Shown here piece after piece: positions 57,489 through 61,685 of a DNA stretch of 64,000 nt (positions are counted from its first letter, which is position 1; the number at the start of each line of letters is the position of its first letter). Below the pieces are notes generated by a model. It was not told the origin of the DNA. It did not search any database and worked only from the letters and a program-made list of their open reading frames with translations. The stretch is taken from positions 228,204 through 292,203 of the forward strand of contig CAZXLF010000003.1 in the NCBI GenBank assembly GCA_964642015.1, written 5' to 3'. Source of the DNA: an uncultured Planctomycetia bacterium (GTDB lineage Bacteria > Omnitrophota > Gorgyraeia > 2-02-FULL-51-18). The translations under genes were made by a program, and so were the position numbers.

Positions 57489-57520
57489 TCATTAGATATC
57501 ATAAATGACCATTAGATATC
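57489..57520 (-). repeat. Direct repeat (C/T)CATTAGATATC x2, 20 bp centre-to-centre, each containing the palindrome GATATC
   Basis: Plus strand has tcATTAGATATCataaatgaccATTAGATATCc. It is located just upstream of the -35 element. Confidence 0.5.
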
Positions 57521-58534
57521 CTTCAAAAACGGCGAAACTGCGTCGTATACGGCCTGATTACCTGCGGGAGTCAAATGTTTATCGAAATTATAATAGAACG
57601 TCTCTTTGGCAGGATTTACGTCCCATACCTTAGCTAGGTCCAAAAACTTTATACGCTGATTCCTGCAAAATGCCTCTAGCTTATTATCCAGCTGAAATCG
57701 GTCATATTCTTCCGGATTTACTTTATAAAATCTAATGACACTTTCCCAACGATTGATCTGTTTTTTTAACGGGATATAGACCACGTATAAAGTCGATGAT
57801 CTGGCCTGGCATAAAAGTTTAATATCGGACAACGCGCTATAAGTATACTGCCACGCTTGTTCCAGGGTCGGAGAAGTATGATTTTTCTGAAAGAGTTCAA
57901 AACTCATCGTATAATCCATTTTAGAAATCCCCAGTTTATAAAGCAATGCCCGGTAATTGACCCGTACAAACTCATAAAGCATGGTTTTAGTGAAAAGTGG
58001 CTTGATGGGTTCCAAAAACTCTACGAGATGTCTTTGTTTGTGTTCTTGATCTCCAGGGATGCGACGTTCCATGGGGTTCGTGGCTTCTCTAAAATTATCT
58101 TTAATATCATTTTCGTAAAAAAATAAGATAACCGCTCTCGGATGGATCTTATCTATATACCGTGAAAGTATTTTCTTCTGTTCGACCGTACCTGTATCAC
58201 ATTTACCCAAATTAAAAACTTCGAAATGCTGATCCATGTGTTTAGACAAAAAACTCGCAAAAGTTTTGTCTTTTTCGGCCCCTAATCCTACGACAAAAGA
58301 ATCACCTAATAAAATAACGTTTTCTTTCCCCTTTTTTAATTTCTGATCGAATTCATCATCTCTAAATCCGTCGGCGTTAAATATCCAAGAATGACGGTAT
58401 TCGATACATCGGACTTCATCATTCTTTGGGGATGGGTAAATAAATCTGAGGATTGTTTCGGCGAAAACCAGAGACACTGAAAAAGAAATAAGAAAAAGGA
58501 TTGGGCTCCAAAAGAAGGCCTTCTTAACGGACAT
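57512..58534 (-). CDS. Membrane-anchored SGNH/GDSL hydrolase-fold protein, paralog 1 of 3
   Basis: N-terminal TM anchor. SGNH blocks are LLGDSFVVG (Ser), FNLGKCDTG (Gly), FFYENDIKDN (Asn) and FDKHLTPAGN (Asp-x-x-His). Confidence 0.75.
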   Translation of the reverse strand: MSVKKAFFWSPILFLISFSVSLVFAETILRFIYPSPKNDEVRCIEYRHSWIFNADGFRDDEFDQKLKKGKENVILLGDSFVVGLGAEKDKTFASFLSKHMDQHFEVFNLGKCDTGTVEQKKILSRYIDKIHPRAVILFFYENDIKDNFREATNPMERRIPGDQEHKQRHLVEFLEPIKPLFTKTMLYEFVRVNYRALLYKLGISKMDYTMSFELFQKNHTSPTLEQAWQYTYSALSDIKLLCQARSSTLYVVYIPLKKQINRWESVIRFYKVNPEEYDRFQLDNKLEAFCRNQRIKFLDLAKVWDVNPAKETFYYNFDKHLTPAGNQAVYDAVSPFLKDI

Positions 58535-58546
58535 GCTGGCTTGATC

Positions 58547-59548
58547 TCAAGAATTCTTCTTGCCGATAAATAAAAGATCTTCGGCAACACCGTGTTTCTT
58601 TAGAAGAGCAAAATATTCTTTATTGACCTTTTGGATCCATCCATTGAAATCATCTTTGAGCTTTCTATTGGGAAAATCGGCCGATCGGATAAGTTTTGGC
58701 TCCGACATCCCGATATCAGCGCTTTTTTGAGGTTTTCCGGTGAGTATCCAATTCAATTGATTTAAAAAATTGTATTCCTGCTCCGTCTGGATCCTGCCTG
58801 TAAATCCGCATTTTTTTAATAATCTCATCAAAGTCGATGCGGAATAATAATAAATATGAGGCTCCCGATACCAAAAATCAGCATATTCTTCGACGTCGTA
58901 AACCGACAAAAGAGAATCGTTCACATTAGGGACCTTGATACAAATCGTTCCGTTTGTCTTAAGATATTTTCTTATAGTTTTTAAGAACGGTACCGGATCG
59001 TCAATATGCTCAAGAACCATATAAATCACGATCAAATCAAATGAGTTCTCTGGTATATCTGTATTCTCGATCGGTTCGGTGTAAACAGGAATGCCTAGTT
59101 TCTGCCTCACGAATTTGGCATCATTTTTATTAAATTCAATGCCCACGCATTCTTTTACATATTTCTTCAAAGCATATAGAAAATGCCCTGACGAGCAGCC
59201 TATTTCGAGCGCCCTCATGTTTGGTTTCAAAACATGCCTGATCTCCCGAATTCGCTGTTCTTGAAATGGCAAATAAATATCAAAGACCTGGCGGCTTGTC
59301 AGCGCCTTCCCCAATACAGGCGTATACATTTGTCTATAGGCCTTACGGTAATAATCCTTCAGATCTTTACTTTGAGGTTCCAAAAATACGAGTCCGCAAC
59401 TCCGGCATTTGAGAACGTTCCGCGGAATATCAAAGCGGACTTTGGACCTGATTTTTTGGAGTTTTTGGCTACCGCAAAGATAACACTTCACCCTTTCTCT
59501 CCTGAGTAAGATCGGACGTTGGGTTTGTGATTCTAGCAAAATCGTCAT
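58547..59548 (-). CDS. Class I SAM-dependent methyltransferase with N-terminal Zn ribbon
   Basis: CYLCGS...CRSCGL and ALEIGCSSGHFL. Same architecture as ORF 37181-38197. Confidence 0.7.
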   Translation of the reverse strand: MTILLESQTQRPILLRRERVKCYLCGSQKLQKIRSKVRFDIPRNVLKCRSCGLVFLEPQSKDLKDYYRKAYRQMYTPVLGKALTSRQVFDIYLPFQEQRIREIRHVLKPNMRALEIGCSSGHFLYALKKYVKECVGIEFNKNDAKFVRQKLGIPVYTEPIENTDIPENSFDLIVIYMVLEHIDDPVPFLKTIRKYLKTNGTICIKVPNVNDSLLSVYDVEEYADFWYREPHIYYYSASTLMRLLKKCGFTGRIQTEQEYNFLNQLNWILTGKPQKSADIGMSEPKLIRSADFPNRKLKDDFNGWIQKVNKEYFALLKKHGVAEDLLFIGKKNS

Positions 59549-59652
59549 TCAAAGTAGTTTATCTTATTCTTCTGTCAAATCAATAGAATTCATTTGTTCC
59601 GATTAAATCCAGCCAAAATAAGGCGGGAAATTTCATGTTCAAAATGTTTCCG

Positions 59653-60651
59653 TTAAACTGATCTCAACCAGCGATCGAAATAAGGCAACATTCTTTGATA
59701 CACAGCCAAATGCCCCGCTTCATTAAAGTGCAGATCAATGTAATAATAAAGCGAATTCTTATTCCGCAAACTGTCCAATTCCGGAGCAAGGTCAACAAAT
59801 TCTATCCTGTTAGAATCACAAAACAGCTTTAGCCGCTTATCCAGCATAAACCTGTCATACTTTTCAGGATCGGCGTTCTCAAACCTAAGCACACCGCTCC
59901 AATGCCCTAATTGCTGGCTCGACGGCAAATAAACAACATAAAACGCTGTTGATCTATCCTGGCAGATAGACTGCATCTTTAACAAGGCGTTATGAGTATA
60001 CTCCCAGCCAAGTTCTGCTTCCCGAGAAATAGAACCATCTTTTCTTAATAATTCAAGACCAATATCGTAATAAATCGGCCATAAGTTCAATTTGCGCAGC
60101 GAGATTCCATATAAATATCGGCTGATTTGATAAACCCTTAGCCGGTTCAGCTGTTTTTCTACCGCTGTAGGCTCTTCGGATCGGATGGATTTTCTTCGAT
60201 TGAGCACCTGAAAATTATCGTTAATGTCATTCCAATAAAAAAACAGTACGACCGCCTTGGGCTTGATCCTATCTATATACTTGGTGAGTATCTCGGTCTG
60301 TTGGATGGTGCCCGTAGAACATTTTCCCAAATTAAACGTTTCGATACGGCTTCCAAATTTTTCCGCCAGAAGATCTGAAAACCTCTTATTTTTACCAACG
60401 CCCACCCCCACCAAGAAGGAATCGCCTAGCAAAATAATGTTTTTACTTTTTTTTTGAAGTTTAAGATCAAAATCATCGTCCCTGAATCCTTCTTTGTTTA
60501 AAATCCAATCATGCCGGTATTCCAAAGTTCTTAATTCGTTTTTATCAGCCGACGGAAAAACGAGCCTGAGTGCAAACTCAGCAAAAAAAAGCGAAATAAA
60601 AAGAGCCGATAAAAATACGGCTATATTTGCAGCAATATTTTTTCTTATCAT
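59653..60651 (-). CDS. Membrane-anchored SGNH/GDSL hydrolase-fold protein, paralog 2 of 3
   Basis: LLGDSFLVG, FNLGKCSTG, FFYWNDINDN and IDLHFNEAGH. Confidence 0.75.
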   Translation of the reverse strand: MIRKNIAANIAVFLSALFISLFFAEFALRLVFPSADKNELRTLEYRHDWILNKEGFRDDDFDLKLQKKSKNIILLGDSFLVGVGVGKNKRFSDLLAEKFGSRIETFNLGKCSTGTIQQTEILTKYIDRIKPKAVVLFFYWNDINDNFQVLNRRKSIRSEEPTAVEKQLNRLRVYQISRYLYGISLRKLNLWPIYYDIGLELLRKDGSISREAELGWEYTHNALLKMQSICQDRSTAFYVVYLPSSQQLGHWSGVLRFENADPEKYDRFMLDKRLKLFCDSNRIEFVDLAPELDSLRNKNSLYYYIDLHFNEAGHLAVYQRMLPYFDRWLRSV

Positions 60652-61685
60652 TATTGAGTTTTGGTCAGGAAGGACGAGATCTTTTTATAAAAAATATCGA
60701 AGAAAACACGATTGCCTTTGGGTGTCAAATGACTGTCAAACTTGTAATAGTAATCTTCTTTATCTGGTTTGGCGTCAAGTTCAAAGCAGGTGTCAAAGAA
60801 TAGGATGTGATTCTGGTCGCAAAATGCCTGCAAGGTCTTATTCTCGACAAAACGGTCATAACGTCCGGGATTTGCTTTATAGAACTTGACCACGTTCTCC
60901 CAATGATTGATCTGTTCTCTTTTTGGCAGATAAACGACCAATAATTTGGCTGCTTTGGAATCGCACAAAGCTTTCATATCGATCAGGGATTTTTTGGTAT
61001 TTTCCCATGCTAATTTAACGGCCGTTGACGAAGAGTTTTTCTCAAAAAGATCGAATTCCATCCCGTAATCCAACTTTGAAATCCCTATCTTTGTTAAAAA
61101 GATCCGATAACGCTGACTGATGAACTGATAAAGCATGCTCTTATAGAGCCATGGTTTAACAGGCTCGAGGAATTCAAAAAACGGCCTTTGCTTGGACAGC
61201 TCCGCTGTCTGCAACGGCCGATATGGCGAATCCTTTGGCATAATAAAATTATCGGCAACGTCATTCCAAAAAAAGAACAGGATCACATATTTTGGATGAA
61301 TGCGGTCGATATACCGCTTCAATATGTCGAGCTGGTTAAAAGTGCCTGTAGCGCATTTGCCTAAATTAAATGTCTCGTAGCGCTCTCCAAGTGTTTTGGA
61401 CAAGAGATAGGCAAAGCTCTCTTGCCTTTCGGACCCAAGACCTACAGCAAAAGAATCCCCGAGAAGGACCACATTCTCTTTGTGTTTGATGAGCTTTTGG
61501 TCGAATTCATCATCGCGAAACCCTTCCGAATTGAATATCCATTGATGCCGATATTCAAGTGAAGTGACCTCTTGACCGCTCGGTTTTGGGTAGATCAGAC
61601 GAAGCGCGATCTCCGCGATAATCAAGCAGACCAAGATCATAGTGGCGGATAAAAGAAGATTAATGCACAATGCTCGCAATTTCAC
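60651..61685 (-). CDS. Membrane-anchored SGNH/GDSL hydrolase-fold protein, paralog 3 of 3
   Basis: LLGDSFAVG, FNLGKCATG, FFFWNDVADN and FDSHLTPKGN. Confidence 0.75.
   Translation of the reverse strand: MKLRALCINLLLSATMILVCLIIAEIALRLIYPKPSGQEVTSLEYRHQWIFNSEGFRDDEFDQKLIKHKENVVLLGDSFAVGLGSERQESFAYLLSKTLGERYETFNLGKCATGTFNQLDILKRYIDRIHPKYVILFFFWNDVADNFIMPKDSPYRPLQTAELSKQRPFFEFLEPVKPWLYKSMLYQFISQRYRIFLTKIGISKLDYGMEFDLFEKNSSSTAVKLAWENTKKSLIDMKALCDSKAAKLLVVYLPKREQINHWENVVKFYKANPGRYDRFVENKTLQAFCDQNHILFFDTCFELDAKPDKEDYYYKFDSHLTPKGNRVFFDIFYKKISSFLTKTQ

Follow-up and report, generated by a model that had tools for sequence, protein, structure and literature searches.

What do three tandem genes for membrane-anchored SGNH proteins contribute to a bacterial gene cluster for surface glycan synthesis? 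This question is raised by a stretch of 64,000 nucleotides of contig CAZXLF010000003.1 (assembly GCA_964642015.1), from an uncultured bacterium which GTDB places in the Omnitrophota; the whole stretch is called the window in what follows. A first description made from the letters, the sequence-only reading, had found three open reading frames with a signal-anchor transmembrane segment and the full set of SGNH catalytic residues, and had related them to a diversified O-acylation or deacylation of the glycan. Open reading frames, Pfam matches and motif positions bear out the three genes, here named S1, S2 and S3, with their anchors and catalytic sets. They would encode outward-facing, anchored serine enzymes which edit ester substituents on an exported or lipid-linked surface glycan, a proposal to which we give an even chance. 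The genes, assigned by open reading frame and Pfam, are as follows.

57512-58534, minus strand: S1, membrane-anchored SGNH protein of 340 residues (Ser79, Gly110, Asn142, Asp318, His320)
59653-60651, minus strand: S2, membrane-anchored SGNH protein of 332 residues (Ser78, Gly109, Asn141, Asp306, His308)
60651-61685, minus strand: S3, membrane-anchored SGNH protein of 344 residues with a GTG start (Ser78, Gly109, Asn141, Asp317, His319)

All three reading frames are intact and every catalytic residue is present. The motifs fall at equivalent sites: GDS at residues 77-79 of S1 and 76-78 of S2 and S3, FNLG at 107-110 (S1) and 106-109 (S2 and S3), ND at 142-143 (S1) and 141-142 (S2 and S3), and the last motif as DKH at 318-320 in S1, DLH at 306-308 in S2 and DSH at 317-319 in S3. 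The positions of the catalytic serine and histidine, which the sequence-only reading had proposed to verify, are thus conserved among the copies. Blocks I, II, III and V carry Ser, Gly, Asn and His in the canonical order. Across 13 aligned family members, with identities as low as 23%, Ser, Asn and His are invariant and Asp is nearly so. Block V has the form D-x-H with one spacer residue, whereas the canonical form is DxxH. The Lipase_GDSL_2 model (PF13472) matches S1, S2 and S3 with 35.1, 43.3 and 39.4 bits, all above the gathering cutoff of 32.9, and S1 also passes the cutoff for Lipase_GDSL (27 bits). The ALGX model (PF16822, cutoff 26.5) matches S1 with 37.8 bits and S3 with 25.2 bits, below the cutoff, and does not match S2; the S1 and S3 matches span just profile positions 14-129 of 268.

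Each protein contains exactly one strongly hydrophobic window of 19 residues, located within residues 5-29 (Kyte-Doolittle 2.1-2.7; next best <1.0). The charges flanking this anchor, +2 on the N side and +1 on the C side, weakly favour an orientation with the N-terminus inside and the catalytic domain outside. The GTG start of S3, at 61685, overlaps the stop codon of the preceding glycosyltransferase gene, and orthologs of 344 residues keep the same N-terminal helix. The public gene call for S3 (P0001, 329 residues, in L020) begins at an internal ATG and loses most of the anchor. Glu25, Leu28 and Arg29, at the outer end of the anchor helix (S3 residues 25-29, window ~61599-61613), are invariant across the whole family alignment, including members linked to carbamoyltransferases. 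The same holds for Gly55 and Arg57, which belong to an N-x-x-G-F-R-D motif. That charged residues are conserved at the membrane interface hints at contact with a partner or a lipid substrate.

The fold of S3 was examined with an AlphaFold2 (AF2) model (predicted local distance difference test, pLDDT, 84; predicted template modelling score, pTM, 0.82). It comprises a long helix (residues 2-31) followed by an α/β core, with a mostly helical insert of ~100 residues (~150-245) between block III and the last core strands. A Foldseek search against the PDB returned 77 matches at E<=1e-3, and among the top 50 listed almost all are SGNH-fold esterases; the matches include CgnD, TesA, SGNH esterases, sialate O-acetylesterases and DltD (6pfx). 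The two halves of the sequence point to different relatives. In profile searches against PDB sequences, the N-terminal half (blocks I-III) matches classical esterases of the TesA and lysophospholipase type (E ~1e-6 to 1e-7), and a profile of the C-terminal half alone finds AlgJ (1.3e-6), AlgX (1.5e-5 and 2.7e-5), CgnD (2e-4) and PatB1 (0.013). The family motif D-x-H-L-T-x-x-G aligns onto DTHWTPMG of AlgJ and DHHWTPHG of AlgX. Profiles proved the more discriminating search; the sequence of S1 alone gives just marginal PDB matches (CgnD, E 0.57). In S1-S3, a nucleophile and oxyanion half of the canonical kind (GDS, Gly, Asn, in canonical order) is therefore joined to an acid-base half of the AlgX type.

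How close, then, is the relationship to AlgJ and AlgX? In those proteins the D-x-H motif holds the catalytic Asp and His (PMC4148444, PMC9487903). S1-S3 share with them an SGNH-like fold, a Ser-His-Asp triad and the one-spacer D-x-H followed by (W/L)-T-x-x-G, and ~115 residues up to and including D-x-H are detectably homologous. AlgJ and AlgX, which are periplasmic O-acetyltransferases for alginate in Pseudomonas, act on an exported polysaccharide, as is proposed for S1-S3, and esterase activity has also been seen for them in vitro (PMC4148444). However, both have a circularly permuted block order (H-S-G-Y/N) without the block III Asn, and both need the MBOAT protein AlgI (PMC4148444, PMC9487903); their block I reads GTSYS instead of GDS (PMC4148444). 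S1-S3 are unpermuted: Ser78/79 lies ~240 residues before D-x-H and the protein ends ~25 residues after it, block I reads GDSF, and Asn141/142 is kept where AlgJ and AlgX have Tyr. They also lack, at their locus, the AlgI and AlgF partners which AlgJ and AlgX need. S1-S3 thus appear related to the AlgX family, yet fail two of its defining features, the permutation and the loss of Asn.

Other known proteins are alike in part. TesA, Thioesterase I and lysophospholipase L1 share blocks I-III and the canonical order (Foldseek target TM-score up to 0.81), but S1-S3 are ~150 residues longer and differ by the helical insert, the membrane anchor and D-x-H in place of DxxH. The top Foldseek match of S3 is CgnD (PDB 8a2n; E 5e-8, ~300-335 aligned columns), an SGNH-fold cytoplasmic hydrolase which removes the crocagin leader peptide (PMC10070186). 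CgnD is of similar size, shares the extra helical region and matches the family by profile (E 1.5e-5). However, at 15% identity, it has DxxH spacing and neither membrane anchor nor glycan context. DltD has a single N-terminal membrane anchor, then an SGNH-like catalytic domain, and its fold match is significant, but systems of the DltD-like/DUF1574 type include an MBOAT partner which is not present here.

The three copies are clearly distinct. End-to-end alignments give 43% identity for S1/S2, 50-51% for S1/S3 and 40% for S2/S3, with 113 invariant columns, far from the >95% expected of an assembly-level duplication, against which the sequence-only reading had set its proposal. S2 is the most divergent copy, and a deletion has shortened its insert by 14 residues. 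In a neighbour-joining tree, S1, S3 and S2 form three lineages: S1 with its ortholog P0005 (62% identity), S3 with P0002, P0003 and P0007 (65-72%), and S2 on a long branch with a sole close relative that is 99% identical. S1 and S3 have separate orthologs elsewhere, and the three genes are old paralogs and not an assembly artefact. The proposed dN/dS analysis was run by the NG86 method. Synonymous divergence (dS) is saturated in all paralog and ortholog pairs, with no estimate for 7 of 8 and a value of 4.3 for S1/S2; the nonsynonymous values (dN) of 0.18-0.59 imply long-term constraint by purifying selection, in a qualitative sense only.

The genomic setting links the three proteins to glycosyltransferases of the GT-C fold. 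Two such genes lie directly upstream within the window.

61682-63565, minus strand: polytopic GT-C-fold glycosyltransferase of 627 residues (GT39/ArnT/PMT_2-like), assigned from the domains and names of its homologs
63584-64000, minus strand: C-terminal end of a YfhO-like GT-C membrane protein (784 residues) which runs off the window (tblastn identity 100%; its L025 ortholog hits PF09586 YfhO)

The 627-residue protein itself has no Pfam match. Its homologs, from 47% identity downward and mostly from Candidatus Omnitrophota, carry PF02366, PF13231 or PF26626 and are named 'glycosyltransferase family 39' or 'ArnT family'. A role as an MBOAT-like acyl transporter was considered for this protein and rejected, as the homologs belong to GT39/PMT_2/ArnT; it is also unrelated to the other unannotated protein of similar size (628 residues, 40541-42427). 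An independent assembly of the same organism (L020) contains the same locus in the same gene order and adds ~7 kb of upstream DNA. There, three further GT-C genes (PMT_2, PMT/PMT_2 and the 784-residue YfhO-like protein) lie upstream of the 627-residue one, four in total. The stop of the last GT-C gene and the start of S3 overlap in 'GTGA'. S2 begins on the last nucleotide of the S3 stop ('TAATG', one nucleotide shared), and S1 starts 12 nucleotides past the stop of a methyltransferase gene. By these junctions, S3 is translationally coupled to the last of the four GT-C genes. The adjacency of this gene and an S3-type gene is kept in three other contigs (L021, L029 and L111). GT-C enzymes act on the outer face of the membrane.

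The whole window forms one co-directional cluster, devoted to glycan biosynthesis from ~15 kb to its upper end. It encodes a nonulosonic acid pathway of the NeuB type with a hydrolysing 2-epimerase, cytidylyltransferases and an aminotransferase, as well as a Wzx-like flippase, many GT2, GT4 and GT9 enzymes, an initiating sugar transferase, several methyltransferases, a polysaccharide deacetylase and a carbamoyltransferase. Among open reading frames of at least 150 residues in the window, and in the ~7 kb added by L020, no acyl donor protein of the MBOAT or AT3 type was found.

In related contigs, the place occupied by S1-S3, directly after the orthologous GT-C gene, is filled in several ways.

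L021-L023: a single S3-type gene, followed by genes for an acyl carrier protein (ACP), two N-acyltransferases, MaoC, a methyltransferase and FkbH
L029, L030 and L111: a pair of S3-type and S1-type genes
L024: a protein of 803 residues without an assigned family and an S1-like remnant of 62 residues
L025 (6630-9124): an MBOAT gene and an anchored protein of 371 residues with GGSR and DGVH motifs

Because its content differs among these contigs, this slot appears to be a variable module for modification outside the cytoplasm. The 371-residue protein of L025 has no Pfam match and no detectable homology to S1-S3 (hhalign probability 1.6%), and was rejected as their homolog on this basis; it is DltD-like by motif only (N-terminal anchor, GGSR, DGVH). 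It is a probable DltD-like partner of the MBOAT protein which would replace the S1-S3 genes.

Some relatives also carry frameshifts, and these fall in simple-sequence tracts.

L021, L022 and L023 (L022:3505-4520), S3-type gene: A6 tract one nucleotide short (CTAAAAAATTATG), identical in three assemblies
L029 and L030 (L029:630-1660), S3-type gene: two extra nucleotides in (TG)4, in two assemblies
L111 (1790-2829), S1-type gene: T6 shortly ahead of block III, as against T7 in S1 and P0005, in one assembly

These are three independent tract frameshifts, in addition to the 62-residue remnant of L024, and they fit a role that is variable and can be dispensed with. The A6 and (TG)4 changes hit the same codon of the S3-type gene (Cys241/Asp242) in two different species. 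The downstream frame is open in each frameshifted copy, in L111 up to the gene end. When the tracts of the two S3-type genes are repaired in silico, each again encodes a full-length, colinear protein in which all motifs are present. The repaired L029 copy reaches 72% identity to S3, no less than the intact L111 ortholog (72%); for the repaired L022 copy the value is 66%. In the window, S1-S3 are intact and the T7 tract is retained; S2 additionally has A9 and T8 tracts. The pattern is that of a recent or reversible inactivation at simple-sequence tracts and could be similar to phase variation. The A tract of L021-L023 forms an in-phase slippery heptamer, A_AAA_AAT, and programmed -1 frameshifting on it is formally possible.

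Beyond these relatives, how widespread are such proteins? The close subfamily is rare, with 7 close matches among 5.8 billion proteins. In an exhaustive profile search, in contrast, the cluster representatives number 7,485 at E<1e-30 and rise to 53,294 at E<1e-10; all but a few of the best 150 listed match over almost the whole profile including the anchor. The anchored SGNH architecture is thus a very large, widespread and uncharacterised family. We sampled 94 distant loci with a family member, 53 of which have at least 3 kb of flank. A carbamoyltransferase of the NodU/CmcH type occurs in 15 of the 94 (10 of the 53 with longer flanks), usually with DUF5989 and often with SxtJ. The SGNH gene is multi-copy in 9/94 loci, and MBOAT and GT-C genes accompany it in 2/94 and 1/94. 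A Pfam census of 141 genes within two positions of a family member recovered GT4 (8), carbamoyltransferase (6), GT2 (4), further GDSL proteins (4), methyltransferases (3) and PMT_2 (2); neither MBOAT nor AT3 was among the recurrent families of this census. On L017, an unrelated contig from groundwater, a family member of 25% identity overlaps PMT_2 genes on both sides, with methyltransferases interleaved. The GT-C coupling, the relationship to AlgX and AlgJ and the size and spread of the family were all missing from the sequence-only reading.

Motif conservation, the SGNH fold, the coupling to GT-C genes across contigs and the co-directional glycan cluster are all consistent with glycan editing. 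In the mechanism that we propose, each of the three proteins would be tethered to the cytoplasmic membrane by its single N-terminal helix, with the catalytic domain on the periplasmic or outer side. They would act after export, beside the four GT-C glycosyltransferases encoded upstream, on a lipid-linked or polymerised surface glycan. An acyl-enzyme would form on Ser78/79, activated by His319/320 and Asp317/318, with Gly109/110 and Asn141/142 as the oxyanion hole. The outcome would be the hydrolysis or relocation of an ester-linked substituent, which could be acetyl, another O-acyl group, or O-carbamoyl installed in the cytoplasm. Such 'editing' by an esterase may unmask or tune glycan positions, and the three paralogs may differ in positional or substituent specificity. 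In related populations, individual copies would be switched off by the repeat-tract frameshifts, leading to glycan variation. The topology, the substrate, esterase as opposed to transferase chemistry, the differences in specificity and the phase variation are what we infer in this scheme. Ester modification of a glycan outside the cytoplasm, taken broadly, is at even chances or slightly better. Within it, hydrolytic editing (de-O-acylation) falls somewhat short of even and net transfer is appreciably less probable; de-O-acylation is favoured because no donor system is present, the block III Asn is retained and the N half is esterase-like.

Several points weigh against the editing proposal. The closest curated relatives, the Leptospira SGNH/GDSL-type esterases LA_2486 and LA_2490 of NCBIfam, are themselves hypothetical and are matched far below their cutoffs (best score 37.3 bits against 300/325). 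The topology depends on analogy and on a positive-inside bias which is weak (+2 against +1). For the C-terminal half, the closest homologs of established function are transferases and not esterases, and an MBOAT or AT3 gene may be encoded in another part of the 294-kb contig. Plain decay could account for the frameshifts, as could, with less likelihood, errors of assembly. Finally, the dN/dS comparison is uninformative owing to the saturated dS.

The explanation which best survives next to editing is that S1-S3 are true O-acyltransferases in the style of AlgJ/AlgX, PatB or DltD. The acyl group would be passed across the membrane by a polytopic protein, either an MBOAT or AT3 protein from another part of the genome or a membrane protein of the cluster that has escaped recognition, and the three proteins would transfer it to three different glycan positions. 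We consider this possible, at a good deal less than even chances. It draws on the C half, which is closest to AlgJ, AlgX and PatB1 with D-x-H aligned, on the ALGX match of S1 and on the DltD-like single anchor. Pairs of MBOAT and SGNH proteins are the standard design for the acylation of polymers outside the cytoplasm (PMC12148441, PMC9487903), and L025 has an MBOAT gene with a DltD-like anchored protein in the very slot which S1-S3 occupy after the orthologous GT-C gene. However, the 64 kb and the ~7 kb upstream hold no MBOAT or AT3 gene, and in the distant loci and the neighbour census MBOAT is rare or not recurrent. Furthermore, S1-S3 keep the canonical block order and the Asn which the permuted AlgX family has lost (PMC4148444), and their N half most resembles hydrolases. 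The suggestion of the sequence-only reading that the triplication diversifies O-acyl modification or demodification of the glycan is supported in part. The glycan cluster, the AlgJ/AlgX-type C half, the MBOAT and DltD-like pair of L025 and the old, separately conserved paralogs speak for it; its acyltransferase part is left without the usual MBOAT/AT3 partner.

The carbamoyltransferases in the wider family raise two further possibilities, and the window itself contains the corresponding module.

29319-31733, minus strand: carbamoyltransferase (605 residues; Carbam_trans_N/C), SxtJ-family protein (138 residues; SxtJ PF19588 on all homologs) and DUF5989/SxtK-like protein (55 residues)

SxtL is a GDSL lipase of 426 residues and a proposed decarbamoylase, encoded in the saxitoxin genes sxtI-J-K-L (PMC2679770, PMC2684587). 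In its gene sizes and their order, the module of the window corresponds to sxtI-J-K. In other genomes the correspondence extends to sxtI-J-K-L, often with a member of the same anchored SGNH family as the fourth gene. Distant members of the S1-S3 family occupy such modules (carbamoyltransferase, SxtJ, DUF5989, SGNH), a likeness to SxtL by synteny only. The first possibility is that the family as a whole is the outward-facing arm of a glycan-modification route without MBOAT or AT3. It would work with carbamoyltransferase and SxtJ/SxtK in about a fifth of loci, an ancestral sxtIJKL arrangement, and with GT-C enzymes elsewhere; S1-S3 would be phase-variable transferases or editors of unusual ester or carbamate groups, with a donor as yet unrecognised. 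We find this rather unlikely.

The second possibility, which we rate as unlikely, is more specific: at least one paralog would be an SxtL-type partner of the module 26 kb downstream and would remove carbamoyl groups of the glycan or relay them across the membrane. In its favour, the distant members found directly beside carbamoyltransferase and DUF5989, with or without SxtJ, are full-length, carbamoyltransferase is the second most frequent neighbour family, and the window's module has no SGNH gene of its own alongside. However, this module lies ~26 kb from S1-S3, which are not adjacent to it as SxtL is in its cluster. The carbamoyltransferase-linked members are just 21-27% identical to S1-S3 (P0011, 25% over the full length), and the close relatives of S1-S3 (L017, L021-L023, L029 and L111) have no adjacent carbamoyltransferase, but GT-C, methyltransferase or ACP genes instead. 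The decarbamoylase role of SxtL is, for its part, a proposal. We also considered the SGNH gene as an obligatory fourth member of carbamoyltransferase-SxtJ-SxtK modules and rejected this. A GDSL gene lies near just one of four modules that were sampled independently; the module can therefore do without it, and the SGNH gene is a facultative associate.

A role away from glycans is very unlikely in our view. S1-S3 would then be esterases of envelope lipids, similar to lysophospholipases or phospholipases or active on polyprenyl-linked intermediates, and their location in a glycan cluster would be incidental or serve the recycling of lipid carriers. The resemblance of the N half to TesA, lysophospholipase L1 and Thioesterase I, the tether which would put the active site at the bilayer surface, and the Glu25 and Arg29 which the whole family shares where the anchor helix ends all agree with such a role. 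Operon-like overlaps with GT-C genes, kept across contigs, and the prevalence of glycosyltransferases among family neighbours speak against it. In addition, the AlgJ/AlgX-type C half points to carbohydrate substrates, and three copies with frequent inactivation in relatives fit decoration better than housekeeping.

Lastly, although orthologs in relatives do carry frameshifts, the idea that the three copies stem from faulty assembly or are pseudogenes in decay has practically no probability left and is refuted, given copies only 40-50% identical and all intact with every catalytic residue, separate S1-type and S3-type orthologs, and the same arrangement in the independent assembly L020.

Among the neighbouring genes, two on either side of S1 deserve mention.

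58547-59548, minus strand: class-I S-adenosylmethionine (SAM) methyltransferase with four cysteines (Cys4), 333 residues, between S2 and S1 (Methyltransf_23 E 2.7e-22, Methyltransf_11 E 1.9e-18)
57170-57403, minus strand: ACP of 77 residues, directly downstream of S1 (PF00550 PP-binding E 1.4e-4, 22.5 bits against a cutoff of 20.8)

The sequence-only reading had placed a Zn-ribbon methyltransferase inside the array. A class-I methyltransferase with C22xxC25...C48xxC51 does lie between S2 and S1; none of the zinc-binding Pfam models matched it, and the putative Zn-ribbon is read from the four cysteines alone. The protein has no hydrophobic segment and is predicted to be cytoplasmic. A second methyltransferase (37181-38197) has the same architecture (24% identity, E 5e-16). 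The enzyme presumably methylates an intermediate in the cytoplasm, and the lipid-linked donors which the GT-C enzymes use are one possibility; it need not cooperate with the SGNH proteins.

The ACP gene opens a module (52151-57403, minus strand) which further encodes two AAC(3)-like N-acyltransferases, a MaoC dehydratase, a methyltransferase and an FkbH loader. The module adjoins the NeuB, cytidylyltransferase and aminotransferase genes and is conserved in L022 and L023. Its domain content alone would suggest an unusual carrier-protein-derived N-acyl group, of the glyceroyl type and possibly O-methylated, on a nonulosonic acid. The carrier protein beside S1 belongs to this FkbH/N-acyltransferase module and not to a Dlt-like one; it is counted here just as a neighbour of S1-S3.

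Tandem paralogs of decoration enzymes are common in glycan clusters, and the triplication itself is ordinary. What is noteworthy is the hybrid relationship to AlgX, the donor-less contexts, the SxtL-type association and the possible switching at repeat tracts. The theme is a known one and not a new kind of system; new here is an anchored, AlgX-related SGNH triplet of canonical order, coupled to GT-C genes and without an MBOAT/AT3 partner. Acylation and deacylation of glycans outside the cytoplasm shape recognition by phages, predators and hosts. In the textbook arrangement, an SGNH protein has an MBOAT or AT3 protein as its partner. With its thousands of diverse members, the family is usually encoded without an acyl-translocating partner, and GT-C or carbamoyltransferase-SxtJ-SxtK genes lie beside it instead. 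Understanding one member would annotate many 'GDSL hydrolase' genes in glycan loci, clarify the origin of the permuted AlgX family and offer SxtL-type genes a function open to test. If sequencing reads confirm the repeat-tract frameshifts of the relatives, these would represent contingency-locus behaviour in uncultivated Omnitrophota-like bacteria.

Some minor observations concern the window as a whole. Two minus-strand open reading frames of the glycan cluster, 40541-42427 (628 residues) and 18648-20006 (452 residues), have no Pfam match; the former gives just weak NCBIfam matches to 'surface carbohydrate biosynthesis protein' models over its C-terminal 140 residues. Every sizeable gene of the 64 kb lies on the minus strand, and all 2-kb bins show a negative GC skew (-0.04 to -0.16). 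The G+C content falls from ~0.47 to ~0.39-0.42 over the GT-C/SGNH end (52-64 kb).

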